Of a stretch of DNA of 64,000 nt, positions 4,729 to 54,314 are shown piece after piece. The stretch lies in contig CALKWO010000084.1 in assembly GCA_938003875.1 (NCBI GenBank), forward strand, positions 4,128 to 68,127, read 5' to 3'. Source of the DNA: an uncultured bacterium (GTDB lineage Bacteria > Planctomycetota > Uabimicrobiia > Uabimicrobiales > JABWCH01). The notes beneath the pieces are model-generated. The model did no database searches. It was given only the letters and a program-made list of their open reading frames with translations, and was not told the DNA's origin. Position 1 is the stretch's first letter. Each line of letters starts with the position of its first letter. The translations under genes were made by a program, and so were the position numbers.

Positions 4729-4731
4729 AGG

Positions 4732-17844: not shown

Positions 17845-17863
17845 AAAAAAAATTCCTTTCTCT

Positions 17864-30308: not shown

Positions 30309-30413
30309 AATACAGCCTCTCCAAAAATTGTGGTAAAATCGCCCATATCGTTTTGGTTGATTGCTTGACACCAGAAATATTTTAAAGTAGAATACTCGTC
30401 TTTCTGTTTTACT

Positions 30414-30860: not shown

Positions 30861-30911
30861 TTTTTTTGGACGTAGCCGCTATTGTCAAAAGCACAGCAGA
30901 GCTACAAACAG

Positions 30912-30950
30912 AAAGAGAACCAAAGATAGAGTCTATCTTTGGTTCTCTTT
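30912..30950. terminator. Perfect 18-bp stem-loop between convergent genes (terminator-like, no clear U tract)
   Basis: aaagagaaccaaagatag-agt-ctatctttggttctcttt, between the ybaN stop (30860) and the histidine-kinase stop (31120). Confidence 0.45.
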
Positions 30951-31119
30951 AGAGGATATTGAGAGAAGACGCAGGGATTGCGCTAGCGTTTGACTTTTGA
31001 GCAGACATGACTTTTTCGGCGCAACCCTGCGACTACAATCTGTTGCAAGACAAAATTTTAAAACTTAACACGAATGACGATAACGACAAAACTATAATTT
31101 CCTATACAGCAAGTTAGGA

Positions 31120-34100
31120 CTATTTCTTTTCGACTTTTTTGTCCAGGGATTCTCTTACCTTTTGTGCCAGATCATGAAGTAAAAATGGTTTTTGAATAAA
31201 ATTAATATCTTTATCCAACAAACAACGTGAAGCAATGGTATTGCTGCTATAGCCAGACATGAATATCTTTTTCATTTCAGGACAAAAAGAGGTTATTTTT
31301 TTTGACAGATCCCATCCATTCATATCAGGCATAACTACATCAGTTATAAGAAGTTGTATCTCTTCATGATGCTCACTAGCAATACGAATGGCCTCCCCTG
31401 GCGTAGAGGCAGGCAGCACACGATATCCTAATCTCTCTAACATTATCTTCACCATATCCAAAATCGCTGGTTCATCTTCCACCAGCAGAAGAGTTTCATT
31501 ACCTTGATTATTTGTAACCATGAAATTTATCTTTGGCGTTGGATCCGCCTTAGCAGAATAGCGTGGGAGGTAGATACTAAAAGTCGCTCCGCATCCAGGT
31601 TCACTGTATACTTTAATGAAGCCATTGTTTTGTTTTACGATTCCATAGACAGTAGCCAGCCCAAGACCCGTGCCTTTGCCAATTTCTTTGGTAGTAAAAA
31701 ATGGCTCAAATAGCCTATCCAAAATTTCTTTGCTCATGCCGCATCCGTTATCAATGACTTCCAGAAATACAAATTCCCCTGGAATAAACCCTGGATGATG
31801 AGTGCAATAGATATTATCGAAAGTAGCAATCCCTGTTTTAATTGTAATTTTTCCTACTCCTATAATAGCATCGCGGGCATTGACACATAAATTGGCCAGT
31901 ATCTGATCAATCTGAGATGGATCCATATTTACCGTCCCTGTTTTTAGCCCTGGTTGCCAGTCGAGATGAATATTCTCTCCAATCAAACGCCTTAGCATTT
32001 TAAGCATCCCCTCTATTGTTTCATTTAAATCAAGAACTTTAGGCATGATAGGTTGTTGGCGTGCAAAGGCTAACAATTGTCGGGTGAGATTAGCGGATCG
32101 CGTGGCTGCCTTGCGGATTTCCTGCATGTCAGTGTAGAATGGCTGTAATGGATACATCTGCTCCATAGCCATATCCACATGCCCAAGGATTACCCCTAGC
32201 ATGTTATTAAAGTCGTGGGCAATTCCGCCTGCCAGGCTACCGATGGATTCCATTTTTTGAGCCTGAAGAAACTGAGCTTCCAAAGAAAGTTTCTTGGTAA
32301 TATCTTCGACTATCTCGATTACTGCCGTAATCTCTCCAGATGAGTTGAGGATAGGAGAAGAAACAATACGATAATTTCGTATTGTTCCTGCCTGAGGTGT
32401 TTGGCTTGTAGCTTCATGTACCTGTTTGTCTTCTAGTGTTTTAATGACAGGGCAATATTCGCACACTTTTTCTCGTGGCGGATTGTTGAATGCATGATAG
32501 CATATAGGATGTTGATCTGGCTCAATTATGGGAAACCACTTATGCATTCGATTGTTTAGTTCTAGAATTTCCATTTTAGGGCTGATAAGACTAATCCCGA
32601 TTTCAATGTTTTCCAGGATACTACGCATCTTGGCTTCACTTTCTTCCAGTGCCTTCTCTGCCTGCTTATGCTTAGTAATATCAATAAAAGTTACAATGAT
32701 TTGCGCTATTTTTCCTTCTTTATCAAAAACAGGATCAGCGTTCACCAAAGTCCAAAAATGCTTGTCTTTTTCTATATGGCGTACACCAATAATAAAATTT
32801 TTCAAGGATTGTTGTTGTGTAAGTACCTGGTTTACAGGATATTCCTCAGCAGGCATATTGCTTCCATCTTCGCAGAAAAAATTCCAGGCTATATTGAGCA
32901 CTGTTTTTCCAATCAATTGCTCTTTTGTTAGCCCAAGCAATCTTTCTGCTGCGGGATTGCATGTCAATATCTCTGTGTTAGAGCTATGAACGATAACACC
33001 TGCCTGTATTTTTTGGACTAATGTTCGATATTTTTCTTCGCTTTCCTTAAGATCGCGTAGTATTAAAAAATTGGCTAACGCATCATGGAGTTTTCTGGTG
33101 ATTTCTTGAAATAGCCGCTTATCTTCTTGTGTCCAAACCTGATAAGATGAATCATAGTGTAATTCAAGCAACCAGGGTTTATCTACTTGAGGATACAAAG
33201 CCGTTGAAATCCAAAAGTAGGGTTTTACATATTGCAATGCCTCACTTAGCGGATAATTGGATTGAGAATCGAATATTTTAATATTGTTTATATCTCTCAT
33301 TGCCTGAAAATATTGGGAGATATTCGTATCCATCTGAATTTCAAACCCTACAGGAAAAGCAGATTCTATTCGAAAACTCTCCATCATCACACGGAATGAA
33401 GCCGCATCAGGATCGCAAGGAGAAAATAACAGCACTCTGTTGCAATCAAATATAGAAAGCATTGTATTCAAAACGCCCTTTAGCATCTGCTCAAGATCAT
33501 TTGTCTCTTGAATAGCCTTGTTGATTTGATCCATACTTTCAAAGAATCGAAGATGAGCTAAACGTTCTTGCTCTGCTTTTTTTCTTTCCGTGATATCCAT
33601 TAGTACAGCGACATTTCCTGTGATTTTTCCATCCAGATCATGCAAGGGCGATGCATAGATACTATACTCGATGGGGGTGCCATCACGCTTTTGGCGTTTA
33701 ACATCTACACCATCCATCGTCTTGCCGCTTCGTATCCAATCACGAAATTTTTTGAATTCTTCCTTTTTATCTTGGGGTACAGAGGGAAGAAAATGTCCAA
33801 TTGCTTCTTGCGCATTCCAACCAAGCAATTTTTCAGCCGCAGGATTCCATACGGTATGTACATATCCTTCTAAATCCAGTCCCATGATGGCCGTTGGGGC
33901 TGCTTCGATAATTGCTCGAAGCATGTCATTGGACTTCTTCAGATCATCTTCTACTCGTTTTCTTTCATAGCGGATACGTAAAGCAATGATCCCAAATGCC
34001 AGATCGCTTGCCAATTCTTCCATGAGTTTAATTTCATCCATTGTGATTGAATTGGACTCTGAAGAATAGATCAGCAGAACTCCGAAAACTTTTCCATTTT

Positions 34101-34590
34101 CATCCTTAAGGGGCAGAGCGATACCAGCGCGATATCCACGTTGCAATGCGCTTTGGCACCATGGGGACATTTGTGGATCTGTTGTGAAATCCTGAACATA
34201 GAGTATTTGTCCACTTCGAATAGCTTTTCCCGCAGGCCCTTTCCCGTATTCTGAATTTTCTGACCAGGTAAGTTTTATATTTGCGATGTATCCATTATCA
34301 AACCCAGACCAGGCTACAGGCCTTATTGTTTTATCAGCATCGTTTTCGGCGTAGCCTACCCATGCCAGGCGATAGCCTGCATCATCGCATATAATACGAC
34401 AAATTTCGTTAAGCAATGTCTGCTCATCCGTCGCTCTCAAAAGAGTCTGGTTGCAGTTACTGAGTGCATGCAATTTGCGATTCACGTTGTGGAGTTGTTC
34501 TACCAGTTTAAGATCGCTAAGTTCTTTTTCTAATTGCAGATTTGCTTTTTGTGATTCATGACTTTTTGATATAATTATTGGATCGTCCAT
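31120..34590 (-). CDS. Hybrid sensor histidine kinase (coiled coil, GAF, multiple PAS, second GAF-like region, HisKA, HATPase_c, C-terminal REC)
   Basis: GAF (…[21 protein letters not shown]…). PAS blocks with …[11 protein letters not shown]…, …[16 protein letters not shown]… and …[11 protein letters not shown]… junctions. H-box [13 protein letters not shown] boxes ([24 protein letters not shown]). REC (LLLVEDEP…[10 protein letters not shown]…KP). Confidence 0.9.
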
Positions 34591-34652
34591 GGGAATACTC
34601 CTTACAAAAGATTAAAAAGAGATTATCCCTGTTTTAGAACAGCTCTGTCAGA

Positions 34653-35489
34653 CTAATGAGAAAAGGAAAATTCTTGTTTATCGAAGAAAAAAAGCCCTGC
34701 CAGAAGCATCACAAAGCTAACACAAAGCAAAACAAGAGAGGCATCCCAGAAGGTACTCATATAGCCTGATCTTTGTCCAAGCAAATCGAAAATCATGGAT
34801 TCCAGATAGTGAGAAACAGCAAACTTTCTTGCTCTTTCTGTTACTGCAACCATCATGAACTCCCAGAAAAAAGCATAGAGGAGGGAAAAATACATTCCTC
34901 CTTTGAACATGCCAATCAAGAGAAAAAGGGAGCTATAGCTCAGAATTCCTAAAAAATAGACAAAAAGCATCTGAAAGAAAATTGTGAGTTCGCCTTTCAT
35001 TCCAAAGAGAAAGAAGAACATCAGGATTAGGGGAACAAGAGAAATGGAAAGGCCTGTGAGCGTCAAAGCCGTAGCCTTGGAAAGATAGATGCTTTTTCGG
35101 CTCAAAGGCCTTAAAAAAAGCATCTGGAGCGTTCCCATCTCTACTTCTTCGCCTATTGCCTTGCTGCCCAGACAGCTCAGTCCAAAAAGGAGAATAAATC
35201 CGAGCAGAAAGCGGTAGCTCAGGAGCGAAAAGATTTCTTTTTGGCTCAAGGGGACGACTTTGGTTTTAAAAGGAACTCCTTGTGGATTGAATTCTTCAGG
35301 AGCTTGCAGGGTGCTATACTCTTCTTCATGAGCGTATACCTTGCGGGTATTCTTTGCCAGATCAGGGTTTAGCTCAATAAAAATACAAACGAGTACAGGG
35401 AGAAAGCTAATTATTAAAAAAAGCAGAGTATAGCGATTCTGGAAAAGATGGAGAAAATTCCATTTGAGAATGCTGATAAAACCTTTCAA
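34653..35489 (-). CDS. ABC-2-type transporter permease-like membrane protein
   Basis: 278-aa polytopic protein. 4-nt overlap with the ATPase gene. Confidence 0.55.
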   Translation of the reverse strand: MKGFISILKWNFLHLFQNRYTLLFLIISFLPVLVCIFIELNPDLAKNTRKVYAHEEEYSTLQAPEEFNPQGVPFKTKVVPLSQKEIFSLLSYRFLLGFILLFGLSCLGSKAIGEEVEMGTLQMLFLRPLSRKSIYLSKATALTLTGLSISLVPLILMFFFLFGMKGELTIFFQMLFVYFLGILSYSSLFLLIGMFKGGMYFSLLYAFFWEFMMVAVTERARKFAVSHYLESMIFDLLGQRSGYMSTFWDASLVLLCVSFVMLLAGLFFFDKQEFSFSH

Positions 35490-36427
35490 TGGACACCCCC
35501 TACAAGAAATCGGAAAAGGGATTCTAAATTTTGCGTTACGGGCATTATCTTTTTGATTCTATAGTCTTTTTCACTCAGAAGCTGAGGAAGGCGCAGGGAA
35601 AAGGATTCAAAGTCTTTTGTACTGACAAGGATAGTTCTGTCATCTTCTTGGATTTCGATGCCTGTCACATCCTGAAAAGAAAGGAGATCGCAGGCAAGGG
35701 AACGAAGATTCTCGCCTTCTATCGAAACTCTGTTTTCTTGCTTTTTGGCTTGCTTCTGAAGTTCTGCTATCTTTCCATGAGCGACCATTTTCCCTCGATC
35801 CAGAATCACTACCTGGTCCGTGAGGGCTTCCATTTCCTTGAGATTGTGGCTCGTGATAAAAATTGTCGCTCCCTGGCGTTCCATTTCCTTGAACAGCTCT
35901 TTGAGATGATGCTTCACGAGAGGATCACATCCCGTAAGCACCTCATCCAAAAGCAAGATTTCTGGATCGTGGGCAATGGCCTGCGCCAGCTTAACGCATT
36001 GCCTCATACCCTTAGAGAGAGTTTCTATCTTTTGGTTTAATTTATGGGAAATTCTTACTTTTTCGATGGCTTGTATTGCCTTTTGTCTGGCTTCACGCGA
36101 AGAAAAGCCATGAAGCTCCGTAAGAATGCTGACGAATTCTAAAACCGTTATATTCTGATAAAGAGCCTCTTTTTGAGGGCATAGACCTAAATGGCGGCGA
36201 AAGTGCGTGCCAGAAAAGGAATTCTCACCCAAAACCAGGACTTCTCCCTGGCTAGGCTTTAAAAGGCCTGCGATGAGATGTAAGAGTGTGGTTTTTCCAG
36301 CAGCGTTGCTGCCTACAAGCCCTGTGATTCCTTTGGGAATTTCCAAATTTACGCCAAGAATGCCTCTCACATCTCCATACCATTTAGAAAGATTTTTTGC
36401 CTCAAGAATCACTTTCTCTGTCATCAT
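35486..36427 (-). CDS. ABC transporter ATP-binding protein
   Basis: Walker A GSNAAGKTT, signature LSKGMRQ, Walker B LLLDEV. Confidence 0.9.
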   Translation of the reverse strand: MMTEKVILEAKNLSKWYGDVRGILGVNLEIPKGITGLVGSNAAGKTTLLHLIAGLLKPSQGEVLVLGENSFSGTHFRRHLGLCPQKEALYQNITVLEFVSILTELHGFSSREARQKAIQAIEKVRISHKLNQKIETLSKGMRQCVKLAQAIAHDPEILLLDEVLTGCDPLVKHHLKELFKEMERQGATIFITSHNLKEMEALTDQVVILDRGKMVAHGKIAELQKQAKKQENRVSIEGENLRSLACDLLSFQDVTGIEIQEDDRTILVSTKDFESFSLRLPQLLSEKDYRIKKIMPVTQNLESLFRFLVGGVH

Positions 36428-37308
36428 GCTAATCCTTCAAAAATGATTTTTCCTAATTTACGATATACAAAAGCAATAGAGAAAAGAGTCAGACAAAGGA
36501 CAACTCCCCCTGATATCCAGAACAATCCTGGAGACAGGCTTTTAAAGAGAAAGATACTATGTCCTATTCTATCTAAATTGCCCAGAAAAGAAGAAAAATG
36601 CAAGGAAGAAAGCTTTTGTATATTTTGAGCGACATATTCTAATACAAAGCCCACAATAAAAACAGCAAGAAAGGACAGCGTCACCATGCGAGAATTCTTA
36701 GTAAAGCAAGAAAACATCAAAAGTAAAAAACCCATGGAAAGGCTTACAACAAATAGATAAGCCAGGGTTTGTATAAATCGCATGAAATGAATGTCTTTGC
36801 TGACAATATACCAGTTTGGAGATTGGGTAAAGCCAGAAAAGATAAAAGAATGCGTCCAGAAAAGAAAGACAGGCAGCCATACAACTAAAAAAGAATAGAA
36901 AAAAGTTACCAAAAATTTTCCCAAAAAATAGTCTTTGCGAGTTATGGGCCTTGAGAAATAGATATGGTATGCGCCTTTTTTCAAATCATCGCTGATCAGA
37001 CCGCCTGTAACTGTTGCCAGGATCAAGCTTAGCCAGGGTAGTTGTATATAGATCATGCTGAGAATGGTTTTACTGAAATATCGTTCCCCTTGAATTTGCA
37101 AAAGATCAGCATCCAACTGTCCCTGGGTAAGAAGAAGAAAGAGAATAGATTTTATAATGGCAGTAAGCCAGGCAGCGACCAGCAAGAAGGTTGTCCATTT
37201 TTTCCGAAAAGTGCATTCCATGCCAAATAAAAAAACAGGCAACCATCTTCTTTTGGAATTTGTTTTTCCTTGAAAAGGGATATAGCGATAATCATCCATT
37301 ATTACCAT
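36424..37308 (-). CDS. Polytopic membrane protein, probable second ABC-2 permease component
   Basis: 294 aa with several TM helices. 4-nt overlap with the ATPase gene. Starts 9 nt after the pilT stop. Confidence 0.5.
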   Translation of the reverse strand: MVIMDDYRYIPFQGKTNSKRRWLPVFLFGMECTFRKKWTTFLLVAAWLTAIIKSILFLLLTQGQLDADLLQIQGERYFSKTILSMIYIQLPWLSLILATVTGGLISDDLKKGAYHIYFSRPITRKDYFLGKFLVTFFYSFLVVWLPVFLFWTHSFIFSGFTQSPNWYIVSKDIHFMRFIQTLAYLFVVSLSMGFLLLMFSCFTKNSRMVTLSFLAVFIVGFVLEYVAQNIQKLSSLHFSSFLGNLDRIGHSIFLFKSLSPGLFWISGGVVLCLTLFSIAFVYRKLGKIIFEGLA

Positions 37309-37317
37309 AACAGTCTC

Positions 37318-38382
37318 TTAAATTTTAGCAATTTTGTCAGGTTTTTTCATGTGAGTTAAGGCTGTTTCTTTTGATATGATACCTTCTCTATAAATGCTTT
37401 CTATAGCAAGATCCAGAGAACACATACCTTCCTGGGTTCTGGTTTCCAGAACGCTATAAATCTGATGAGTTTTGGCATCACGAATCAAATTCGCTACAGC
37501 AGTGTTGTTCAACAAAACTTCACAGGCAACCACTCGTCCTTCTTTATCTGATCTGGGAAGGAGTCTTTGAGCGATAACACCTGTCAAGCACAACGCCAGT
37601 TGCAAGCGTATCTGGTGTTGCTGCTCTGGAGGAAAGACATCCACAAGGCGATCTATGGTTTGCACAGCATCGTTAGTGTGCAAGGTTGCCATAACAAGAT
37701 GCCCTGTTTCCGAAGCAGTCAAGGCACAAGAAATGGTTTCCCTGTCTCTCATTTCTCCAACTAAAATCACATCAGGGTCTTGTCTCAAGACATATTTTAA
37801 AGCAGCATGGAAGGTGGGAGTATCACGCCCAACCTCTCTTTGCTCTACAATGCTTTTTTTATGCACATGGATGTATTCGACAGGGTCTTCAATCGTAATG
37901 ATATGAGAAGCCTTGGTTCTGTTGATCAAATCTACGGCAGAAGCCAGAGTCGTGCTTTTACCATGCCCTGTTGGGCCTGTGATAATCAAAAGCCCTAAAG
38001 AAGACTGAACCAGTGTTTTCAAAATTTTGGGAAGCCTTAGCTCTTCAAAATCAGGAAGTACATTAGGAATACTACGGAAGGCAGCACTGACGGTACCTTG
38101 TTGCTGGAAAACATTGATACGAAAACGATGTATCCAGTTGTCTTCCTCGCACCAATAGCAAAAGCCAATATCCAAAGATTTTTCTTGCTCAAAGGTTTTT
38201 TTCTGCTCTTCCGTCATAATGTTATAAAGCATCTTGTGGGTATCCTGGGAACTGAGAATTTCCTTTCCCACAGGCCAAAGCTCTCCATCCACTCTCAAAT
38301 AGGGAGGGGCATTGGCAATGATGTGCAAATCCGATGCTTTTTTTTGCGATACCAGACGAAACAATTTTTCCAGTTCTATCAT
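37318..38382 (-). CDS. pilT: Type IV pilus retraction ATPase PilT
   Basis: Size 354 aa. Walker A GPTGHGKST. Asp box. His box GHLVMATLHTN. PilT-type AVANLIRDAKTHQI. Confidence 0.9.
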   Translation of the reverse strand: MIELEKLFRLVSQKKASDLHIIANAPPYLRVDGELWPVGKEILSSQDTHKMLYNIMTEEQKKTFEQEKSLDIGFCYWCEEDNWIHRFRINVFQQQGTVSAAFRSIPNVLPDFEELRLPKILKTLVQSSLGLLIITGPTGHGKSTTLASAVDLINRTKASHIITIEDPVEYIHVHKKSIVEQREVGRDTPTFHAALKYVLRQDPDVILVGEMRDRETISCALTASETGHLVMATLHTNDAVQTIDRLVDVFPPEQQHQIRLQLALCLTGVIAQRLLPRSDKEGRVVACEVLLNNTAVANLIRDAKTHQIYSVLETRTQEGMCSLDLAIESIYREGIISKETALTHMKKPDKIAKI

Positions 38383-38471
38383 AAATTTCTTTAATTAAAG
38401 ATAATGTACAAAAAACAAACTCTGGCACTGTTCATGCCAGAGTTTACAGTTAATTACAACAATATAGCATC

Positions 38472-40097
38472 TTATTTTTTGTCATAATCAGGATTGAGTT
38501 TGTCCATTTCGAGTTTTTGTTTCAGATGAGGATAGAATTCAAATTCTGTATCGAATTTATCGAATTTTTCCTGCTGGGCTTTCCATTCTTGTTTTCCCAT
38601 ATTTTTCAGGTATTCTTCATTTACGATGCTGATGTTCATGAAGATCAGGAGTTCGGTTTTGATCATTTCCTGGATTTCATTGCTGAAAAGGAGTCCCAGA
38701 AGAGGAATATCGCCTAGCAAGGGTACTTTGAAACGGGTTTTACGGACAGTGTCTTCCAGAATACCACCAATGACGATGGTCTGGCGATCTCTGGCAACCA
38801 CATTGGATTCTACGATTTTTTTCTTCAAAATGGGAACGATATTTTCGATTCCATTGGCAGTATAACGGAAATTATCGATTTTGGCAGAAACTTCGCCTTT
38901 GAGAGCCAGTTTGACATTGCCATCGGAATAGATATCGGGTGTGACTTCCAGTTTGATACCAGCTTCCTTGAAGGAAATTGTGACAGTCACAGTGTTGGTA
39001 TCTTTATCCAGCTCTGAAGTAGTATAAGGAATGTCCTGGGTGACTTCAATCTTGGATGTCAGCTTGTTGGCACACAAAAGATTAGGACTGGACAAGAGTC
39101 TGGCATTGTTGCGATTGGCTGTTGCAGAGAAACCAGCAGTGAAATTATCGTGAGGACTCTTGAAAGCCATTCCCATAGTATCTGTATAACTATCAGGAAG
39201 AGCATTGAAATAGGATGGATTGACCAGCATATCGTCTAACTTCCAACCTTCGCTTTCAAAAGCAAAACCAGCACCAGTGTTGGCATCCAAAGTTACTTCC
39301 ATAACATGGCAACGGATATAGACCTGGGGTTCAGGCTGATCGGCTGTGTTGATGAATTGAGCTACTTTGTTTAGGACTTCTTCTTTGTCTCTTACAACCA
39401 GAGTCATGGTTTTTTTGTCAAAAGAAAGTTTTCCTTTGTCCTGGGTCAACATGCTTTTGATGGTTTCTTCTACATTGTCAGGATTGAGACGATTGATCTT
39501 GAAGGTTCTCTCTTGCAATCTTGCATCAATAGCACTGCTGGGATCCAGGTTTAAAAACTCTACATATTCTTTGACTTTAGCAACATTCTCAGGGGCATCC
39601 CAAACCAAAACAGCATTTCCATCACGGTTGACTTCCATCTTTCCCTGGAAGGAAAGCATGCTTCTGATTTTGGCTTCGACTTGCTCTACAGGTGTTCTGA
39701 GAAGCTGAAAATAGTTCTTTTCTGATGCGGATGTACCGCCTATTCCTAGCTTGTCATCCAGGCCAGCCTCAGCCTTTACAGCAGCTTCTTTTACTCTTTC
39801 TTCCAAAGTATAGATATTTTCCTTTTTGACGAGAAGATAGCCATGCTCATTGCAGACGATTTCCAGAAGCTTTAGAGGAGGTATGCTGTCTTTCAGTTGC
39901 AATGTGACTTTTTTGTCAATCTCTTTGGTCAGAACCAGGTTGATTTTGGCTTGCTCTGCCAACATGCGGACAACATCATCCAGTCTGGCATCTTTTAAAC
40001 TAATAGCAGGAATACCATCTTGGGCTACGATAGTAGCAAAATTTCCCAAAAGAATCATTGCTAAAACAAGCAATAAAGTTTTACATTTGAGTACCAT
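38472..40097 (-). CDS. Secretin (PilQ/GspD family) outer-membrane channel
   Basis: Signal peptide. N0/N1-like repeats. Secretin core …LLSSPNLLCANKLTSKIEVTQDIPY… and …VPLLGDIPLLGLLF…. Confidence 0.88.
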   Translation of the reverse strand: MVLKCKTLLLVLAMILLGNFATIVAQDGIPAISLKDARLDDVVRMLAEQAKINLVLTKEIDKKVTLQLKDSIPPLKLLEIVCNEHGYLLVKKENIYTLEERVKEAAVKAEAGLDDKLGIGGTSASEKNYFQLLRTPVEQVEAKIRSMLSFQGKMEVNRDGNAVLVWDAPENVAKVKEYVEFLNLDPSSAIDARLQERTFKINRLNPDNVEETIKSMLTQDKGKLSFDKKTMTLVVRDKEEVLNKVAQFINTADQPEPQVYIRCHVMEVTLDANTGAGFAFESEGWKLDDMLVNPSYFNALPDSYTDTMGMAFKSPHDNFTAGFSATANRNNARLLSSPNLLCANKLTSKIEVTQDIPYTTSELDKDTNTVTVTISFKEAGIKLEVTPDIYSDGNVKLALKGEVSAKIDNFRYTANGIENIVPILKKKIVESNVVARDRQTIVIGGILEDTVRKTRFKVPLLGDIPLLGLLFSNEIQEMIKTELLIFMNISIVNEEYLKNMGKQEWKAQQEKFDKFDTEFEFYPHLKQKLEMDKLNPDYDKK

Positions 40098-40172
40098 GAA
40101 AGTTCTCCACTCCTAAATTGTAAATAAAGGAACAATAGTATGATAAAACGACCTTGAGAAGGCAATAGAGAA

Positions 40173-40745
40173 CTATTTTTTGATAGCTTTCTCTACTTTT
40201 TTTCCTTCCACGGAAAACACAATAGCATCCGAACGAATTTCCAAAATTTTTACTTTTCCCTCTTTTATGGATTCGCCTACTCTGACGAATTTATTTTCAC
40301 CACCAACTTTGATATTGGCGTTGCCATAGAAAATCCCTACGATTTCCACATCGTCCAGGTTTATCGCTTCCCCCTGTACTGTAGAAGGAGGAAAATAAAA
40401 ATACCTTTCTAATCGGGAGATTTTTTGAATTTGCTCGCCCATTTTGGCATTCATAATCTCCAGTTCCTGGAGTTTATAAACTTTTTCTACGTCCAGTTGC
40501 ATGTCCGCTTCTTTCTGTAGTTCGGTCAGAGCCAATATCAAGTCTTTTGCACTGGGATTCTCTTTGTTTGTGACTTTTTCCCATACGCTGGGAGGCACAA
40601 ACGCTTCCCCTTCGGTTTCCTCTATTCTCTTTTCTGAGAACTGGACTTGCGCCAGAAGAGGAACTTCAAATGTAGAAAGATATGCCATAGCTCCTATGCA
40701 AAAAAGTACAGGCATAAGAACTGCGAAGAGATAGGATTTATTCAT
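40173..40745 (-). CDS. Bitopic pilus/secretion assembly protein: TM + coiled coil + PilP/GspC-like C-terminal beta domain
   Basis: N-terminal TM helix, then a coiled coil. C-terminal …VEIVGIFYGNANIKVGGENKFVRVGESIKEGKVKILEIRSDAIVFSVEG… resembles PilP/GspC HR domains. 4-nt overlap with the upstream gene. Confidence 0.5.
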   Translation of the reverse strand: MNKSYLFAVLMPVLFCIGAMAYLSTFEVPLLAQVQFSEKRIEETEGEAFVPPSVWEKVTNKENPSAKDLILALTELQKEADMQLDVEKVYKLQELEIMNAKMGEQIQKISRLERYFYFPPSTVQGEAINLDDVEIVGIFYGNANIKVGGENKFVRVGESIKEGKVKILEIRSDAIVFSVEGKKVEKAIKK

Positions 40746-41176
40746 TGTAAATTTTTCACTCCATCAATTTTCCAAGTTCCATTTTCTTCCACAAACACAA
40801 ACATGGTTCTGTTGTTCTGAAAATTGACTGTAGTGATTGCCCAAATTTGTTTGCCATTATAAGCACTCTGGACAATCGTGTCTATTCTTGCGTCTTTCAG
40901 ATGCTCGCTCCCTACCTGCTGCATATTCTGAGAAAATCTTTCCAGAGAGCGATCTTTCTGCCATCTACTAGACAGCATTTGATAGGCTTTTTTCCAATCT
41001 TGATGTTCACATGCTGCCTTAAACTGCATAAAAGCATCTTTTTGCGGGGTCAAGGCCTTAGGCTTGGACTCCGATTCCTGGATCAGCTCATTTTCTTCAT
41101 TGACCTTGACCCAGCAACCCGACAGAAAAAACATGCACACAAGACAAACAGAAAGATAGAATTTTTTTATACCCAT
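40742..41176 (-). CDS. Lipoprotein, NTF2/DUF4878-like fold suspected
   Basis: Lipobox FFLSGC. 144 aa. Lies inside the pilus cluster. Confidence 0.5.
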   Translation of the reverse strand: MGIKKFYLSVCLVCMFFLSGCWVKVNEENELIQESESKPKALTPQKDAFMQFKAACEHQDWKKAYQMLSSRWQKDRSLERFSQNMQQVGSEHLKDARIDTIVQSAYNGKQIWAITTVNFQNNRTMFVFVEENGTWKIDGVKNLQ

Positions 41177-41244
41177 TTTTTACCTAAAGTTCAAGAAAAA
41201 TTCTTAAAATTTGTTTTAGTCAAGTAGAATCTTATAACTTTCGC

Positions 41245-42357
41245 TCAATCTAAATTATTGGATTTTACCTTTGGTACAGAAGAGGTAGTATCAAAAATAT
41301 ATGCTGTACCCCATGCATCTGTATAATATTCACCCGTGCCATTGGTTCCAGGCAATAAAGGAGGAGATTGATTCTGCATATATCGAAGCGCAGTCTGCCA
41401 AGATGTTGGGATTGCTGGTGTATAACCTGCGTTCCGATAGTAATTCAGGGCTGCATTGATGGCATCAATTTCTGCTAGAGTTACGTCCCTTTTAATATCA
41501 GATACATAAACAATCTTTATCTGATCATCGCCTTGAGGATTCATTTGAGTGGCGGGTGTCTGGTGTATTCTGTCTGGCCCTGCACTCTGGATTTTAAATT
41601 GGTTATTGGAAATAAAAATCGCTCTATAACGGTTTCTCCAGATATCATAAAGCACTGTATTCTCCTCTGGTGTTTTGGGAAGACGCTCAGACGATATATA
41701 AGGGCCATTCCAGCCAGCAACACCTGGATTTTGGTATAAATACAATAGATTTCTTTCAGGAGGTGTAACTCCTGTTACAGGAGGCCATTGATTTGTATCT
41801 CGGTTATAATCACGAATTGCCCTGGCAAGTTTATCCATAGATTCTGTTAGGTCAACATTTCGTTTTTTTATTGCAAGATCGCCTACATAAGCTTGTTTTA
41901 CAATATCGTCGCCTTGCATACTTGCATGGTATGCTTTATCTGGGCCAGCACTTTGTATTTTCAAAATAATGTCTGGATTGTCAGTGTCTGGGATAGCTCT
42001 ATAGGGCATTCTCCATTTATCGTAGAGAACAGTGTTGTCTTCTGCATCTGTAGAAATATAGTTCGTTGCAATATAAGGGCCTCGCCAACCAGGAATTGAA
42101 GGTCCTAGCGTTCTATCAAACAAATAGCGTAAATTTCTTTGCTGCGGCGTAGTGCCACCAATAGGAGGCCATTGTCCTACATCTCGATAGTAATAATATA
42201 CCGCTTTGGCAATAGCATCCATATTTTTGATTGTTTCTTGTTCTCTTTCTAGGTCTATAAGTCTGCTTCCTGTAGGTAATAATGTCCCTGCAACCATAGC
42301 CATGAGAGCAAGAACTACAATCATTTCTATAAAGGTAAAGCCTTTTTGATATCTCAT
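41245..42357 (-). CDS. Large type IV pilin / pseudopilin with about three tandem GspG-like modules (paralog 2)
   Basis: Prepilin leader and methylation motif MRYQKG|FTFIEMIVVLALMAMVAG. Repeated …YYRD.GQWPP…NL.YL…GW.GPYI…DNTVLYD.WR..YRA…IQSAGPD…QGDD… blocks. ATG 42357 with AAGGA RBS. Confidence 0.85.
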   Translation of the reverse strand: MRYQKGFTFIEMIVVLALMAMVAGTLLPTGSRLIDLEREQETIKNMDAIAKAVYYYYRDVGQWPPIGGTTPQQRNLRYLFDRTLGPSIPGWRGPYIATNYISTDAEDNTVLYDKWRMPYRAIPDTDNPDIILKIQSAGPDKAYHASMQGDDIVKQAYVGDLAIKKRNVDLTESMDKLARAIRDYNRDTNQWPPVTGVTPPERNLLYLYQNPGVAGWNGPYISSERLPKTPEENTVLYDIWRNRYRAIFISNNQFKIQSAGPDRIHQTPATQMNPQGDDQIKIVYVSDIKRDVTLAEIDAINAALNYYRNAGYTPAIPTSWQTALRYMQNQSPPLLPGTNGTGEYYTDAWGTAYIFDTTSSVPKVKSNNLD

Positions 42358-42469
42358 AATTTTTTCCTTCACTTTAGAAAGTTTTTATACTTTATTTATT
42401 GTAAAAGGAAAAACAAAAATTTTCTAAAATGTATTTTTTAAAATCTGTAACTCATTTTTTTATATTGAG

Positions 42470-43603
42470 TTATTGAGTATTATTAGAGCGAACCTTTTGA
42501 CCAGCACTTATTAGACGATATTGTTGACCCCATGAATCTGTCAAATAGGGCCCAGTTCCATTGGTTCCAGTCAATAAACTGCGGTTTTGTAAATATCTTA
42601 ATGCATTTGGCCATGTTGTGTTTGGAACTATTTTAGGCGTATAGCTAGATTGAGAATGGTAATAGTCAAGAGCTTCATTGATGGCTTCAATTTCTGTCAG
42701 AGTTACCTCTCTTTGGATATCAGAGACATAAACATTCACTATAATATCATCTCCTTGAGCGGTAGTGTGGATAACAGAAGTCTGATGCACTTTATCCGAA
42801 CCAGCACTTTGGATTCTCAGTACTGTATTGGGGTAAGTAGTATCAGGGGTCACTCTATAGCGTGTTCGCCATTTATCATAAAGTACTGTGTTGTCTTCTG
42901 TAGTTTTAGGAAGAAGCGAAGACATGATATAAGGGCCATTCCATCCTGTAATGCCTGGATTTTGATATAAATATAATAAATTTCTTTCAGGCGGAGTAAC
43001 TCCTGTTGTAGGAGGCCACTGGCCTATATCTCGGTAGTAAGAACGTACAGCATTAGCAATTTCTTTCATACTGTTTGTTACTACATCTTCTTGCTCGACA
43101 ATGGTAAGATCCCCTACATACACCTGTCTTACAATATCATCACCTTGAGCAGTCATCTGGTTAGTATTAGTTTGAAATGTTTTATCTCTGCCAGCACTCT
43201 GTATTCCCAAGATATAGTTGTTGGATGATGTATCGGGTACTGCTCTGTAAGCAGTTCTCCATTTATCATAAAGAATAGTATTGTCTGCTGCATCTGTAGA
43301 AAGAAAATTCGATGAAATATAAGGTCCTCTCCAGCCAGGAATTGCCCCCCCTAGAGTTCTATCATATAAATATCTTAAATTTTTTTGTGGAGCAGTAACT
43401 CCAGTGGTTGGTGGCCATTGCCCAACATCTCGATAATAAGAACGCACGCCCTCGGCAATTGCGTCCATATTATCCATGGTTACTCTCTCTCTTTCGTTCT
43501 CTAGTATTTGCATCCCAGCAGGCACCAAAGTACCCGCAACTATAGCCATAACAGAAAGCACCACAACCATTTCAATTAAAGTAAAACCTTTTTGGTGTCG
43601 CAT
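42470..43603 (-). CDS. Large type IV pilin / pseudopilin with about three tandem GspG-like modules (paralog 1)
   Basis: MRHQKG|FTLIEMVVVLSVMAIVAG. Same modular repeat pattern as its neighbour. Strong GGAGGAG RBS. Confidence 0.88.
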   Translation of the reverse strand: MRHQKGFTLIEMVVVLSVMAIVAGTLVPAGMQILENERERVTMDNMDAIAEGVRSYYRDVGQWPPTTGVTAPQKNLRYLYDRTLGGAIPGWRGPYISSNFLSTDAADNTILYDKWRTAYRAVPDTSSNNYILGIQSAGRDKTFQTNTNQMTAQGDDIVRQVYVGDLTIVEQEDVVTNSMKEIANAVRSYYRDIGQWPPTTGVTPPERNLLYLYQNPGITGWNGPYIMSSLLPKTTEDNTVLYDKWRTRYRVTPDTTYPNTVLRIQSAGSDKVHQTSVIHTTAQGDDIIVNVYVSDIQREVTLTEIEAINEALDYYHSQSSYTPKIVPNTTWPNALRYLQNRSLLTGTNGTGPYLTDSWGQQYRLISAGQKVRSNNTQ

Positions 43604-43626
43604 ATTTTCTCCTCCACAAGAAATTT

Positions 43627-44847
43627 TTATTTTTTCCCAACGATTTTCAAAAGATCGTAGATTGGCATCAATGTTCCCATGATGATAAAAAGCACGATTC
43701 CACCAGCACCAAAAATGATCAGGTTTTCTGTAATCTGTAAGAATCGCTTGATAGAATTGGGAATTTCCTGGTCATAGAAAATACATACCTTTTGCAAGCT
43801 TTCATCCAGCTTACCTGCTTCATCTCCTACTTTTACCATGGTAACGACAAGAGAAGGAAAAACTTCTGTGGCTTTCATGGCAACGGAAAACCTTTCTCCT
43901 TCCTGGATGGCTTTGGAGACTTGCTGTATTTTTTTCTTGAGATAATGGTTGGAAAGCACTTCTTCGCAATAGCCAAGGGAATCGCTGACATCCACACCTG
44001 ATTTTTGCAGTGAAGCCAGTGTGCTGCAAAATGCAGAGGCATTGTCTTTGATGATTAATGGACCAAAAAGTGGTAGATTCAGCAACCATTTATCCGTTGT
44101 CAGGCGCATTCCTGGATTTCTGCGAGAAATAATAATCATAAATACGCCAGCAATGGCTAATACAATAAGAATCAAAGCATTGTTGATCAGGAAGTTGCTG
44201 GCCCCCTGGATGACCCTTGTAGGGAAAGGAAGGAGAACGCCTGCATCACTATATACCTGGACGATCTTGGGCAACAGATAAAGCAGCAAAACCAAAATCA
44301 GACAAAAAACGGCAAACGATAGCGTTACAGGATAGATCATAGCACTGACCAATCTGCCTTTTGTCTCTTCCCTTCTTTCGATAAAACGAATCAAGCTATC
44401 CAATGCTGTATCGAGATTACCTGTGGCTTCGCCAACGCGAATCAATGCTATATAAATTTTGGGGAATACTTTAGGATACGCAGCCAGGGCATCGGAAAGA
44501 GAGCTTCCATTCTTGAGTGCCATGCAAACATTGTCCAGTACCTGGGCAAAATAAGGATTGGATGTTTCACCCTTTAAATCCTCCAGCCCAGAGATCAAGG
44601 GAACACCAGCAGAGTACAGCGTCTTTAGATGATGGGTGAAGGGTAGAACATCTTTCATCTTCACTGTGCCTGTTATCTCTGCTTTTTTGGGCGCGTCTGT
44701 AGATTTAGCAACAGCGTATTTAACCAATGTGAGATTCTGTGCTTTGACTTTGGACAAAAGATCGGCTATGGATTCCGCCTCCATAGTGCTGTTGATTTCA
44801 TCGCCTTTGTTGTTTCTGGCTTTATAAGAATACATTGTTTTTGCCAT
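43627..44847 (-). CDS. Type II secretion / type IV pilus platform protein (GspF/PilC family)
   Basis: 406 aa, two T2SSF-like halves each followed by TM helices. Lies between the ATPase and the pilins. Confidence 0.88.
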   Translation of the reverse strand: MAKTMYSYKARNNKGDEINSTMEAESIADLLSKVKAQNLTLVKYAVAKSTDAPKKAEITGTVKMKDVLPFTHHLKTLYSAGVPLISGLEDLKGETSNPYFAQVLDNVCMALKNGSSLSDALAAYPKVFPKIYIALIRVGEATGNLDTALDSLIRFIERREETKGRLVSAMIYPVTLSFAVFCLILVLLLYLLPKIVQVYSDAGVLLPFPTRVIQGASNFLINNALILIVLAIAGVFMIIISRRNPGMRLTTDKWLLNLPLFGPLIIKDNASAFCSTLASLQKSGVDVSDSLGYCEEVLSNHYLKKKIQQVSKAIQEGERFSVAMKATEVFPSLVVTMVKVGDEAGKLDESLQKVCIFYDQEIPNSIKRFLQITENLIIFGAGGIVLFIIMGTLMPIYDLLKIVGKK

Positions 44848-44895
44848 CGTACGATCCTTTTATTGATATTTCACAATGAATTGACAGCCTTAAAA

Positions 44896-46599
44896 TTAAT
44901 GCTCTGGTAAAACTCTCATGGCTTCCAGTATTGTTGTGGTTCCATCCAATACTTTTGCTCTTGCATCTTGTTTGAAGAATGTCATTCCTTTTGCAATACA
45001 GAATTTTTTCAGTTCGATTTCATCTACTTTCTGGAGCATGAGACTACGAACATCGTCATCGGGCATGAAAAGCTCATAGATAGCCCTTCTTCCTCTATAC
45101 CCATTGCCTTTGCATTTTTTACAGCCAACCTGTTTGTAAAGTTTGAGTTGCTGCTCTGGTGGATACCCCAGCCATTCATTTTCTTGCGGAGTGGACATAT
45201 AGGACTCTTTGCAATAAGGGCAAAGTGCACGAGCCAGACGCTGGGCAAGAACGCCATTTAAAATGGAAGTGAGCATAAAAAGATCAATGTCCATATAGAG
45301 AAGACGCGGAATAGCACCAATAGCCGTGTTAGTATGAAGTGTGCTAAGGACAAGATGCCCTGTCTGCGCTGCATGAACAGCCATCTCTGCTGTTTCTTTA
45401 TCTCGAATTTCTCCCACGAGAATAACATTAGGGTCATGGCGTAAGAATGCTCTCAAACCCGTTGCAAAGGTATACCCGATAGAGTGGTTTACCTGGGATT
45501 GACGAATAAAGGGAAGCTGATATTCTACAGGGTCTTCGATAGTGACGATGTTTTTTTCAATCGCGTTCAGGCTCTTAAGACAAGAGTAAAGACTGGTGGA
45601 CTTTCCTGAACCTGTTGGCCCAGTTACAAGAAATAGCCCAAAATTTTTAGAAATGATGTTTTCTATATTTTTGAGCATCTCTCGGTTAAAGCCTATGGAG
45701 CGTAAACTGAAAAGTTTATTCTTTTCGAGAATACGAATGACGATGTTTTCCCCATGCGTAATCGGCATGGTAGAAACACGAAGATCAATGTCTATTTTAT
45801 CTTGCTTAAAGCTGATTTTTCCATCCTGTGGCAATCTGCGTTCGGAAATGTTCAACTTTGCCATGAGCTTAATACGGGAAATGATACTGTTTTGCAATTC
45901 TGTAGGAATCGAAGGCCCAGAACATAGAATACCATCTACTCTGTATCTCATCTGAACATGGCTGCCCAGTGGGTTGATATGAATATCGCTCGCCTTCCAC
46001 GCAGCACCCAAAGCAAGGAGCTGGTCTACCAGAGTTTGAACAGGTAAGCTGGATGCATCCGTATCCGTAGTTCCTTCCAGCTCTTTAAGGCATCTCTGGA
46101 TTGTTTCCTGGATGCTTTCATCCAAAGCTTCTTTTTTGGTTTTGTCAAAATAATAACCGTCTATTGCTTTGAGTACCTCTTCTTCTGAAACGGAAACGCA
46201 TTTTACGATAAGACTTTCGTCGGTATTTCGAATCAGATCGTTGATAGCATCCATAGCAACGATATCATAAGGATTAGACAAACCAACGGTCAGTTCGCCT
46301 TCCTGTATGTAAAGAGGTATACATTTATATTTGACGACAAACTCAGGCGGAAACAATTTTATAACTTCAGGGGCAATTTCAATGCCCTCAAGAGTGGGAA
46401 TATGTTCTATATCCAGATCCAGACAGAGCAAGCTTGTCAGAGTCTCTTCCGTAATAAAGCCTCTGTTTACGAGAATTTTTCCAAGAGATTCGTGCGTCTG
46501 CTTTTGCTCCGCCAGGGCTACGTCAATCTGTTGTTGTGTAACACAGCGCAAAGCAATAAGATTATCAACCAATTTGGTCATTTTTGTTGAAATTGCCAT
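44896..46599 (-). CDS. Type II secretion / type IV pilus assembly ATPase (GspE/PilB family)
   Basis: N-terminal GSPII_E_N-like domain. Walker A GPTGSGKST. Tetracysteine CPYC…CKKCKGNGYRGR. His box GHLVLSTLHTN. Confidence 0.92.
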   Translation of the reverse strand: MAISTKMTKLVDNLIALRCVTQQQIDVALAEQKQTHESLGKILVNRGFITEETLTSLLCLDLDIEHIPTLEGIEIAPEVIKLFPPEFVVKYKCIPLYIQEGELTVGLSNPYDIVAMDAINDLIRNTDESLIVKCVSVSEEEVLKAIDGYYFDKTKKEALDESIQETIQRCLKELEGTTDTDASSLPVQTLVDQLLALGAAWKASDIHINPLGSHVQMRYRVDGILCSGPSIPTELQNSIISRIKLMAKLNISERRLPQDGKISFKQDKIDIDLRVSTMPITHGENIVIRILEKNKLFSLRSIGFNREMLKNIENIISKNFGLFLVTGPTGSGKSTSLYSCLKSLNAIEKNIVTIEDPVEYQLPFIRQSQVNHSIGYTFATGLRAFLRHDPNVILVGEIRDKETAEMAVHAAQTGHLVLSTLHTNTAIGAIPRLLYMDIDLFMLTSILNGVLAQRLARALCPYCKESYMSTPQENEWLGYPPEQQLKLYKQVGCKKCKGNGYRGRRAIYELFMPDDDVRSLMLQKVDEIELKKFCIAKGMTFFKQDARAKVLDGTTTILEAMRVLPEH

Positions 46600-46814
46600 A
46601 GTTTTACTCTACTCTATAGAAAATAAAATTTTCAAGGAAAAATACTTTTTGATGCTTCTTTTTTCCAGCATATAAAATTTTATTTAAAAATCAAGAACTA
46701 TTCTAAATTCCTTGCGAACTTTTTTATTTTAATTTTTTTTAATTTTTGGTATTCTGTAATTTATTGACAAATATAAACATTATTTTATTGTAAAAACATT
46801 TGTATAGGAAAACA

Positions 46815-47528
46815 ATGGAAAGAATAAATGCATTTTTAAGCACTGCACCTGCCCTGATTTTATATCAGGGAGATTTGGAAAAAGCCAGACAAAAGGGTAC
46901 GATTCTTTTTTATCATGGTTTGGGAGCGTGCAAAGAATCTCAGGAAAAAGAAATTGTAAGCCTTGCACAGCATGGTTTTCTGACGGTTGCCCTGGACAAT
47001 ATAGGGCATGGGCAAAGAAAGTACAAAGATTTTGAAAAAAAATTTTCGATGAACAATCCTGCTCTGGAATACGACTTTACAAAAGCCGTACAGGAAACAG
47101 CCAAGGAAACGCCTGATGTAATACATGCTCTCTTGGAAAGAGGCCTGGCTCAAGCAGGCAAAATAGGAATATGCGGAATTTCTATGGGAGGCTACATTGT
47201 ATATTCTGCTCTTTTAAACAAGTGTGGTATACAGGCAGGTGTTTCGATTCTGGGGTCGCCTACATGGAAAATCCAGAATACAGAAAGCCCTCACCACTTT
47301 CCAGAGCGTTTTTTTCCAGTGGCTTTTCTGGCTATGAATGCAGGATCGGACAGAAGCGTTCCGCCCAAATTCGCAAGGGAATTCCACGAAAGACTCAAGC
47401 CTTTTTACAAAGCCTCCCCTGGACGGCTTTCTTACAAAGAATACCCAGGAGCCGACCATTTTATGCCAGAAAAAGACTGGAATGATTTGTGGGTGAGAAC
47501 GCTCGAATGGTTTGATTCTTTTTTATAA
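46815..47528 (+). CDS. Alpha/beta hydrolase (dienelactone hydrolase / S9-like)
   Basis: Nucleophile elbow GISMGG. C-terminal …PGADHF… histidine. ATG 46815 preferred over the TTG at 46800. Confidence 0.7.
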   Translation: MERINAFLSTAPALILYQGDLEKARQKGTILFYHGLGACKESQEKEIVSLAQHGFLTVALDNIGHGQRKYKDFEKKFSMNNPALEYDFTKAVQETAKETPDVIHALLERGLAQAGKIGICGISMGGYIVYSALLNKCGIQAGVSILGSPTWKIQNTESPHHFPERFFPVAFLAMNAGSDRSVPPKFAREFHERLKPFYKASPGRLSYKEYPGADHFMPEKDWNDLWVRTLEWFDSFL

Positions 47529-47543
47529 AACACTAGGGCGAAA

Positions 47544-48332
47544 TCAATTATCGGATTTATTCATTTCTCTCCAGGGAACCAAAATACTATAAAGCCTTTG
47601 CATTAAAAAATTGAAGCTGCTGCCTAAAAGAGAAATAACAACAAGTGTAGCATACAATTCTGCCAGATGCAATGTCTCCCAGGCGAACCATATCAGCGTT
47701 CCCAAACCATTTTTAGCAGAAATGATTTCTATTGCAATTGTATTGACAAGACTCATGTTAAGGGCAAGACGCACTCCGCTCAATGTTGAGGGCATGCTTG
47801 CGGGCAAGATCACACGGAGAAAAATATGATAATTGCCTGCGCCATAGCTGCGTGCAATTTCATAATAGTCTTTTGGGATTTGCATGACTCCACTCATGGT
47901 ATTGATAACCATAGGGAAAAAAGAGGCCAGGGCAATAGAAAATATTTTACTGGCCTCACCAATCCCTAAAATAGCCATAATTAAAGGAAGAAGGGCTATC
48001 TTAGGGATGGGATGTATGGCTGCAATGAAGGGGTCTATCATATTGCGAAAAAAGGAAGAATACCCCATTAATATACCCAAGATAAAACCTACATTGCATC
48101 CTATCAGAAAACCAAATAATAATCTCTGCAAAGTCGCCAATAGATGTATTGACAAGGTGCCATCCATGAAAAAGGAATATATTGTCTGTAAAATTTTACA
48201 AGGAGATGGGAAAAAAAAGGAAGAGATAATTCCATGGCGAGAAAAGAATTCCCAACTACTTAGCACAAGGAAAACAAACAGACAAGATATACATATTCCT
48301 TTTTGTGTATATTTTTTTTTCAAAATTTTCAT
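47544..48332 (-). CDS. ABC importer permease (SsuC/TauC/NrtB-type, BPD_transp_1)
   Basis: 6-TM protein with an EAA-loop-like ARSYGAGNYHIFLRVILPASMP. Confidence 0.85.
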   Translation of the reverse strand: MKILKKKYTQKGICISCLFVFLVLSSWEFFSRHGIISSFFFPSPCKILQTIYSFFMDGTLSIHLLATLQRLLFGFLIGCNVGFILGILMGYSSFFRNMIDPFIAAIHPIPKIALLPLIMAILGIGEASKIFSIALASFFPMVINTMSGVMQIPKDYYEIARSYGAGNYHIFLRVILPASMPSTLSGVRLALNMSLVNTIAIEIISAKNGLGTLIWFAWETLHLAELYATLVVISLLGSSFNFLMQRLYSILVPWREMNKSDN

Positions 48333-48333
48333 C

Positions 48334-49149: not shown

Positions 49150-49154
49150 ATTCG

Positions 49155-52816: not shown

Positions 52817-52819
52817 AGT

Positions 52820-54262: not shown

Positions 54263-54314
54263 AAAATTCCTTTTTTGATATTTTTTTGTCTTTACTAACA
54301 TCAATATTCATAAT

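Follow-up and report, generated by a model that had tools for sequence, protein, structure and literature searches.

Can an ATP-binding cassette (ABC) exporter belong to a type IV pilus (T4P)? The question is raised by a 64-kb stretch of DNA of an uncultured planctomycete (contig CALKWO010000084.1). The whole stretch is referred to here as the window, and all coordinates are positions in it. In this window, twelve consecutive genes, all on the minus strand from 46599 down to 31120, bring the components of a type IV filament machine together with pilT, three ABC-2-type transporter genes (the trio) and a hybrid histidine kinase. On the basis of Pfam and NCBIfam profiles, the locus would encode a reduced filament machine that combines T4P motors with structural parts resembling those of a type II secretion system (T2SS). 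The pairing of pilT with the trio recurs in other lineages, and the exporter may be an accessory of pilus dynamics. The gene content, positions and junction lengths of this same-strand run, as given in the initial annotation, were all reproduced.

The pilT-ABC-2 unit and its recurrence

The gene for the first permease of the trio lies 9 nt after pilT, the permease, ATPase and permease genes are chained by 4-nt overlaps, and the kinase gene follows after a further 62 nt. Genomic contexts of the trio were recovered from ten lineages, nine of them informative, with L092 left out of the count; a metagenome scan contributed only two short loci. pilT is found directly upstream of the trio in five of the nine informative lineages, with gaps of 9 to 166 nt. 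Besides the window, with its 9 nt, these are MAG_51 (‘Candidatus Brocadiia’; 12 nt, 78% identity), L006 (17 nt, 45% permease identity), L098 (74 nt, PilT 62% identical) and L091 (166 nt, 54% identity). The adjacency, which might have been peculiar to a single genome, therefore recurs in four further lineages and is neither unique nor obligatory. In a neighbor-joining tree a single unlinked clade (bootstrap 80) was nested among the linked lineages, which makes the latter paraphyletic; pilT linkage was also missing from the two lineages that diverge most, and deep nodes were weakly supported. This topology fits an old, inherited linkage of pilT and the trio with one loss.

In the unlinked lineages, signalling kinases repeatedly flank the trio, namely a giant Ser/Thr kinase, a Ser/Thr kinase with an FHA domain, a further Ser/Thr kinase and a histidine kinase (L010 557-6658; L011 8132-9430; L094 1-1518; L099 32-2206). 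These echo the hybrid kinase of the window and may be due to chance in kinase-rich planctomycete genomes. In the window itself, the kinase beside the pilT unit and the genes for GAF, methyl-accepting chemotaxis and response-regulator proteins at 19469-23225 hint at a dense signalling input.

A terminator scan revealed no terminator-like site between pilT and the first permease gene, or within the gap between the trio and the kinase gene (34653/34590). Only two strong terminator-like hairpins were found on the minus strand of the region, one after the kinase gene (30950-30912) and one between the stop codon of the secretin gene and the start of pilT. The latter, overlooked in the initial annotation, consists of a stem of 13 to 14 bp and a 5-nt loop followed by a run of U residues, with a fold energy of -22.2 kcal/mol (z = -3.2). 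It is present with the same sequence in MAG_51 (locus L003, about 8855-8890). At the same place in L006, after the secretin gene (about 880-915), there is a 13-bp stem of different sequence followed by U7. Since the structure is kept in L006 and the sequence is not, the hairpin is argued to be functional, and terminator activity is predicted for it.

With a hairpin after the secretin gene, the run reads as two units, one from the extension ATPase to the secretin and one of pilT, the trio and the kinase, and it is probably not one uniform operon. Since only 27 nt separate the end of the U-run from the ATG of pilT, partial read-through is the most likely mode of expression of pilT and the trio, at a level below that of the structural genes. 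By its position, the kinase gene is probably the last of the pilT unit. Co-transcription, read-through and functional coupling are all what we infer from this arrangement. The run had been described as wired directly to PilT and the transporter; this holds for pilT and the ABC genes, given their 9-nt spacing and the lack of a terminator-like site between them, and not for the run as a whole, which the hairpin divides. Promoter-like matches showed no enrichment (48 against 40.5 expected) and were left unused. No Rfam match at E<=0.1 was obtained across 30000-48000, and a riboswitch or other known RNA was rejected.

The 294-aa protein encoded next to pilT had been described as a membrane protein; more precisely, it is itself an ABC-2 (type V) permease. 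Its Pfam matches to ABC2_membrane_2/3/5 are weak. Its AlphaFold2 (AF2) model (predicted TM score 0.75) gave NosY, PmtD and ABCG2/G5G8 as the best Foldseek matches, and hhalign aligned its family with that of the 278-aa permease with 91% probability over 234 columns. Taken together, the model and the alignment indicate a second ABC-2 permease in the trio, distantly paralogous to the 278-aa one. Its subfamily is very rare: a word-indexed search gave 6 matches, and an exhaustive one through 1.84e9 proteins gave 5 representative clusters at E<=1e-30. The 278-aa permease matches Pfam ABC2_membrane_2 (PF12679) with 36.5 bits (cutoff 27.2) and GldF weakly, with 21 bits.

The ABC ATPase (ABC_tran, 103 bits) has an intact Walker A motif, signature (LSKGM) and Walker B motif, and its NCBIfam matches to DrrA (195 bits) and GldA (173 bits) are both below cutoff. 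The transporter is thus predicted, partly from the structural model, to be a heteromeric ABC-2 exporter with two different permeases and one ATPase. Its assignment to a characterised system was rejected: only sub-threshold matches to DrrA, GldA, GldF and MutG were seen, and no curated family (DrrA, GldA/F, MutG, NodI, Pmt) was reached.

Anatomy of the filament machine and its surroundings

All T2SS core profiles of NCBIfam found a match in the cluster, none of them at its equivalog cutoff: GspE 522 bits (cutoff 630), GspF 315 bits (424), GspG 43 bits (89) and GspD 195 bits (351). The T4P profiles PilB (494 bits, extension ATPase), PilC (255 bits, platform protein) and PilQ (209 bits, secretin) were also matched below cutoff. 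The platform protein, the pilins, the HR-domain protein and the secretin lean to T2SS models. As judged from sequence, the system is a reduced hybrid of type IVa pilus (T4aP) motors and T2SS-like parts. The anatomy is well supported: a reduced type IV filament machine that has PilT and modular pilins of GspG-like build and is predicted to respond to cyclic di-GMP (c-di-GMP).

The extension ATPase matches Pfam T2SSE with 409 bits and MshEN with 46 bits, and carries a CxxC...CxxC zinc motif. In the PDB, its best full-length matches are to Thermus PilF (432 bits) and Myxococcus xanthus PilB (395 bits), and the match to GspE (362 bits) is partial. It is without the N1 domain by which GspE binds GspL, and has MshEN instead. 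Its N-terminus (46599-46400) matches the c-di-GMP motif NF053729 with 49 bits, over the cutoff of 38, which suggests that filament extension may be controlled by c-di-GMP. The platform protein contains two copies of T2SSF (187 bits) and matches M. xanthus PilC (3jc8) with 202 bits. PilT scores 451 bits with TIGR01420 (cutoff 319), keeps an intact Walker A, Walker B and His box, and has a motif, AVANLIRD, that resembles AIRNLIRE. It matches Geobacter PilT4 with 361 bits and Aquifex PilT with 338 bits in the PDB, and is 48% identical to a Myxococcus-type PilT.

The giant pilins of the initial annotation are indeed two large prepilins, which the alignment of their modules now resolves into tandem GspG-like units. 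Both consist of a class III leader and an alpha1 helix followed by modules A, B and a truncated C, and both are free of cysteines. In pilin 1 (leader MRHQKG/FTLIEM, with the slash marking the cleavage position; N_methyl 36 bits and T2SSG 43 bits in Pfam), the modules span residues ~31-168, ~169-302 and ~303-377. Modules A and B are 58% identical, and C is ~30% identical to A. The open reading frame (ORF) of pilin 2 begins at a GTG at 42372 and would encode 375 aa; the ATG 15 nt further on, at 42357, gives a 370-aa protein with the leader MRYQKG/FTFIEM, in agreement with the NCBI gene call (370 aa) and in parallel with the leader of pilin 1.

The two pilins are 60% identical, with mature lengths of ~371 and 364 aa. 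MAG_51 has a single 242-aa pilin (L003 5276-6004) with modules A and C only, which points to module B as a recent internal duplication that is older than the duplication of the pilin gene. By our own estimate, subunits of ~40 kDa would give a fibre of unusual thickness for a secretin channel; judged from mass per length, its diameter would be ~9-10 nm if all three modules were displayed. Since both pilins carry the canonical leader G/FT(L/F)IEM, a prepilin peptidase must be encoded elsewhere.

The gene of the 144-aa lipoprotein overlaps that of the 190-aa HR-domain protein by 4 nt. The lipoprotein gave no significant Pfam, NCBIfam or PDB sequence match; a 72% identical homologue is found at the same position in MAG_51, and a pilotin-like role would be only a guess.

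The AF2 model of the 190-aa protein shows an N-terminal transmembrane (TM) helix, a long coiled coil and a C-terminal beta-domain (predicted local distance difference test score ~80, residues 130-187). The best Foldseek match was 3oss_C (TM score 0.81, root mean square deviation 1.5 A, E 4e-3). The top 12 PDB matches were HR domains of GspC/PulC/LspC or PilP, except for a Dot/Icm type IV secretion system chain at rank 11, and GspB appeared at rank 17; the E-values are weak and the matches consistent. Residues 154-184 also match Pfam T2SSB weakly. The earlier description of this protein as GspC/PilP-like is backed by these matches. Its family comprises only 3 proteins among 5.8e9. From its model, the protein is presumed to be the inner-membrane link to the N0 domain of the secretin, with a GspC/PilP-type HR domain fused to an anchor of its own.

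The secretin is built of an N0-like domain, one N-domain, the secretin domain and a charged C-terminal tail, and is without AMIN domains. In Pfam it matches Secretin (135 bits), Secretin_N (46 bits) and, weakly, the GspD N0 domain; its PDB matches are GspD 5wln (106 bits) and PilQ (94 bits).

Profiles for PilM/N/O and for PilD/GspO (Peptidase_A24) found nothing in the whole 64-kb window. The two pilins are its only ORFs with a prepilin motif, and there are no minor pilins. PilY1 was found neither in the cluster nor in the window, and GspL/M and GspH-K were not found within the window. The absence of PilMNO, minor pilins and a prepilin peptidase, first noted for the cluster, thus extends to the full window. 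With one HR-domain protein replacing PilMNOP or GspCLM, this anatomy illustrates the degree of reduction that a type IV filament machine with a secretin can undergo. The possibility that the missing parts lie just beyond the cluster was rejected for the window, where the flanks hold other genes: an opposite-strand alpha/beta hydrolase, nitrate/sulfonate-type ABC uptake, an enzyme like a nonribosomal peptide synthetase, a porin, DUF454, an acyltransferase and asparagine synthase. The features of the cluster are listed in Table 1.

TABLE 1 Features of the filament and ABC-2 gene cluster, in the order of transcription
Feature	Position	Strand	Length (aa)	Assignment
PilB/GspE-family extension ATPase	44896..46599	minus	567	T2SSE, MshEN (Pfam)
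GspF/PilC inner-membrane platform protein	43627..44847	minus	406	T2SSF (Pfam)
Modular prepilin 1	42470..43603	minus	377	N_methyl + T2SSG
Modular prepilin 2	41245..42372 (likelier start 42357)	minus	375 (ORF) or 370	N_methyl + T2SSG
Lipoprotein	40742..41176	minus	144	Lipobox LSG/C
Bitopic HR-domain protein (tm190)	40173..40745	minus	190	AF2 model + Foldseek
Short secretin	38472..40097	minus	541	Secretin (Pfam)
Terminator-like hairpin + U-run	38415..38447	minus		Terminator scan, folding
PilT retraction ATPase	37318..38382	minus	354	TIGR01420
First ABC-2 permease, type V exporter fold (mem294)	36424..37308	minus	294	Model + hhalign
ABC ATPase, DrrA/GldA-like ABC-2 type	35486..36427	minus	313	ABC_tran
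Second ABC-2 permease (perm278)	34653..35489	minus	278 (TTG start)	PF12679
Soluble hybrid histidine kinase	31120..34590	minus	1156	GAF-PAS-PAS-HisKA-HATPase-REC (Pfam)

Upstream on the same strand, a cluster at 47544-54304 encodes a binding protein of the NMT1 type, an ATPase and a permease of the ABC type, an enzyme of 874 aa with AMP-binding, peptidyl carrier protein (PCP) and thioesterase domains and a phosphate-selective-type porin; it is separate, and the divergently oriented alpha/beta hydrolase divides it off from the pilus genes. At 17098-19399, outside the pilus cluster, two adjoining genes encode secreted proteins (261 and 511 aa) of the Laminin_G_3 (LamG) type, with signal peptides and no prepilin motif. 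The large ORFs at 157-4728 (1523 aa) and 20189-21694 (501 aa) gave no Pfam match at E<=1e-4. Elsewhere the window encodes subunits of Nqr/Rnf and an Fe-hydrogenase, among other ordinary genes.

Explanations for the pairing of pilT with the exporter

The locus may be understood as the reduced type IV filament machine of a planctomycete. It would be driven by two motors, one a bona fide PilT and the other an extension ATPase of the PilB kind whose MshEN domain would bind c-di-GMP. Structurally, it would comprise a platform resembling GspF, pilins resembling GspG, a short secretin and, where other systems have PilMNOP or GspCLM, an HR protein of the GspC/PilP type with a TM anchor. The genes would form two units, the structural genes up to the hairpin and then pilT with the heteromeric ABC-2 exporter, probably together with the soluble hybrid kinase. 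The exporter would be an accessory to pilus dynamics whose acquisition was independent of the PilGHI transporter of Myxococcus, to which it is analogous. It may handle an inner-membrane item needed for filament turnover, be it the pool of hydrophobic pilins or a polymer or lipid exported to the surface. The suggestion of the initial annotation, that the ABC system might energise the filament machine or export something through it, is conjecture. We hold this accessory role tentatively, giving it nearly an even chance. A functional link between exporter and pilus is plausible from the operon-like spacing, the recurrence of the adjacency across divergence and the Myxococcus analogy.

Several observations weigh against such a link, and some of them are those expected if the trio were an ordinary exporter, serving efflux, immunity or envelope maintenance, that was fused by chance into the pilT unit and inherited in one planctomycete clade. 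The conserved unit is the trio itself, which stands without pilT in four lineages (L010/L089/L090; L011/L099, behind a NUDIX gene; L094; L096). Its distant homologues (24-30% identity) stand by themselves, away from pilus genes, as a four-gene module in the order ATPase-permease-ATPase-permease, highly conserved in metagenome-assembled genomes (MAGs) of Aminicenantes, Acidobacteriota and Desulfaltia (L012-L088, e.g., L016 9090-12616); in Poribacteria loci, only a permease match was seen. The unlinked lineages and these free-standing relatives weaken the functional link. All linked lineages may belong to one planctomycete order, within which neutral conservation of gene order is possible, and the terminator activity of the hairpin is a prediction only. 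The trio is also not orthologous to PilGHI, which makes that precedent an analogy only, and its similarities are of the generic DrrA/GldA/GldF/NosY level.

A chance fusion is a real possibility, one that we place short of even. It does not readily account for an adjacency that survives to 45% permease and 62% PilT identity, with gaps of 9 to 17 nt in three lineages, or for a conserved hairpin that parts pilT from the structural genes where nothing parts pilT from the ABC genes. A further point against it comes from L096, a high-GC planctomycete MAG (GCA_029260755.1) in which the trio (10001-12707) follows a cluster on the same strand (4019-9722) at a distance of 280 nt. That cluster encodes a protein of 298 aa like a prepilin (RGLTLIEV), one of 898 aa resembling GspK and a secreted one of 488 aa. 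Here the trio stands beside pseudopilin-like genes, which makes a second kind of association of the trio with type IV filament genes. Were the adjacency neutral, the locus would simply be a divergent planctomycete pilus cluster. Pilin-like phmmer matches of 24-32 bits about 9 kb upstream in many Aminicenantes loci were dismissed as noise; the related L007/L008, called with Pfam, have no pilus genes there.

The apparatus could also be T2SS-like, with a periplasmic GspG-like pseudopilus as a piston that PilT resets and an exporter that delivers or primes lipid-linked or hydrophobic cargo for the secretin. The better scores of the pilins, platform and HR protein with GspG, GspF and GspC than with T4aP models agree with this, as do the short secretin without AMIN domains, closest to GspD in the PDB, and the thick fibre to be expected from three-module pilins. 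We consider this explanation unlikely: a genuine PilT is characteristic of retractile T4aP and not of T2SS, the extension ATPase is matched best over its full length by PilF/PilB, neither GspL/M nor the minor pseudopilins GspH-K occur in the window, and the cluster contains no candidate cargo gene.

Finally, PilT might serve the ABC system rather than retract the pilus, its gene having replaced that of the first ABC ATPase in an ancestral four-gene module, given that the Aminicenantes-type relatives have an ABC ATPase directly upstream of the permease resembling the 294-aa protein, where the linked planctomycetes have pilT. This is highly improbable, since the first ATPase is missing from the unlinked planctomycete lineages too, with no PilT standing in for it, and the PilT of the window has an orthodox score and all its motifs intact. 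Moreover, PilT is a hexameric secretion ATPase for which we know of no interface to ABC-2 permeases.

Comparison with known systems

The machine shares with the canonical T4aP of Pseudomonas, Myxococcus and Thermus a PilB-like ATPase with an MshEN-type N-terminus, a PilC-family platform, PilT, a secretin and pilins with class III signal peptides. It differs from them in lacking PilM/N/O, minor pilins, PilY1 and PilD, in the cluster as in the window. It also carries the HR domain on a TM-anchored coiled-coil protein, whereas in T4aP this domain is found on the lipoprotein PilP, and has GspG-like, cysteine-free pilins with two and a half to three modules in tandem and a secretin without AMIN. 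Its likeness to T2SS lies in the GspF-like platform, the GspG-like pilin fold, the GspC-like HR protein and the short GspD-like secretin. In contrast with T2SS, PilT is present, GspL/M and GspH-K are not in the window, and the ATPase has MshEN in place of the N1 domain of GspE. Reduced T2SS clusters are found in chlamydiae. The tandem duplication of the GspG head domain in the pilins bears on the divergence of T2SS and T4aP.

Among ABC-2 systems, GldAFG of Bacteroidota also ties an ABC-2 ATPase and permease to a surface-motility apparatus; GldA is the second-best NCBIfam match of the ATPase and GldF the only one of the 278-aa permease. These matches are, however, far below cutoff (GldA 173 against 403 bits, GldF 21 against 289 bits), and no GldG-like gene is found here. 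The model of the 294-aa permease superposes best on NosY and PmtD, which belong to two exporters of known structure, NosDFY and PmtABCD of Staphylococcus, and the ATPase-permease-ATPase-permease order of PmtABCD is seen in the distant relatives of the trio. The PmtA/PmtC models, however, were matched only by the Aminicenantes ATPase, with 124/103 bits against cutoffs of 350/375; NosD/NosL partners are lacking here, and the substrates of Pmt and Nos are unrelated to pili.

The closest precedent is that of M. xanthus, where the ABC-2-type transporter encoded in pilA-pilG-pilH-pilI (TC 3.A.1.144.5) is required for pilus biogenesis (PMC3724824, PMC3546991, PMC3924187, PMC6060248). The claim that coupling to an ABC transporter is part of no described T4P operon was therefore wrong (PMC3724824, PMC3546991, PMC3924187). 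For an operon of pilT with ABC-2 genes, no description was found in the literature searched.

Homology was assessed with BLASTP and hhalign against a pil locus (L093), which was reached from M. xanthus PilC, rebuilt from the PDB 3jc8 alignment, by way of a Myxococcus-type PilC. Both systems are three-gene ABC modules in a T4P locus, with a protein of ~300 aa, an ATPase and a PF12679 permease encoded with overlapping start and stop codons. Both ATPases are DrrA-like, and PilI and the 278-aa permease both match Pfam ABC2_membrane_2. Orthology was nevertheless rejected for all three genes. PilG (L093 15225-16136, 303 aa) is a secreted helical-repeat protein without similarity to the 294-aa permease. 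PilH and the ATPase of the window are 31% identical and score 132 bits, where an unrelated Aminicenantes ATPase reaches 137 bits and the distant relatives of the trio 211-233 bits. PilI has only the motif E..T...P.SR in common with the 278-aa permease. The neighbouring genes also differ, being pilA/pilD for PilGHI in Myxococcus and pilT for the trio.

A second, non-homologous exporter of the ABC-2 type at a pilus gene, resembling PilGHI in its placement, found in another phylum and next to a retraction motor, would, if true, favour a functional link over a peculiarity of a single species, and would offer a basis for comparing what pilus-associated transporters do; to our knowledge, the role of PilGHI in pilus biogenesis in Myxococcus has been unexplained since 1998. 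A broader proposal would be that ABC-2 exporters are recurrent, independently recruited accessories of T4P (PilGHI in Myxococcota and Desulfuromonadales, the pilT-linked trio in Planctomycetota) that answer a general membrane-level need of pilus turnover, and that the cluster may be a lineage between T4aP and T2SS. This proposal is rather doubtful; were it true, the extraction, re-insertion or clearance of a hydrophobic pilin pool during PilT-driven retraction would be an example of such a need. An ABC-2 exporter in a T4P locus was known already from Myxococcus, and what the window adds is its pairing with pilT and an unrelated trio with two permeases.

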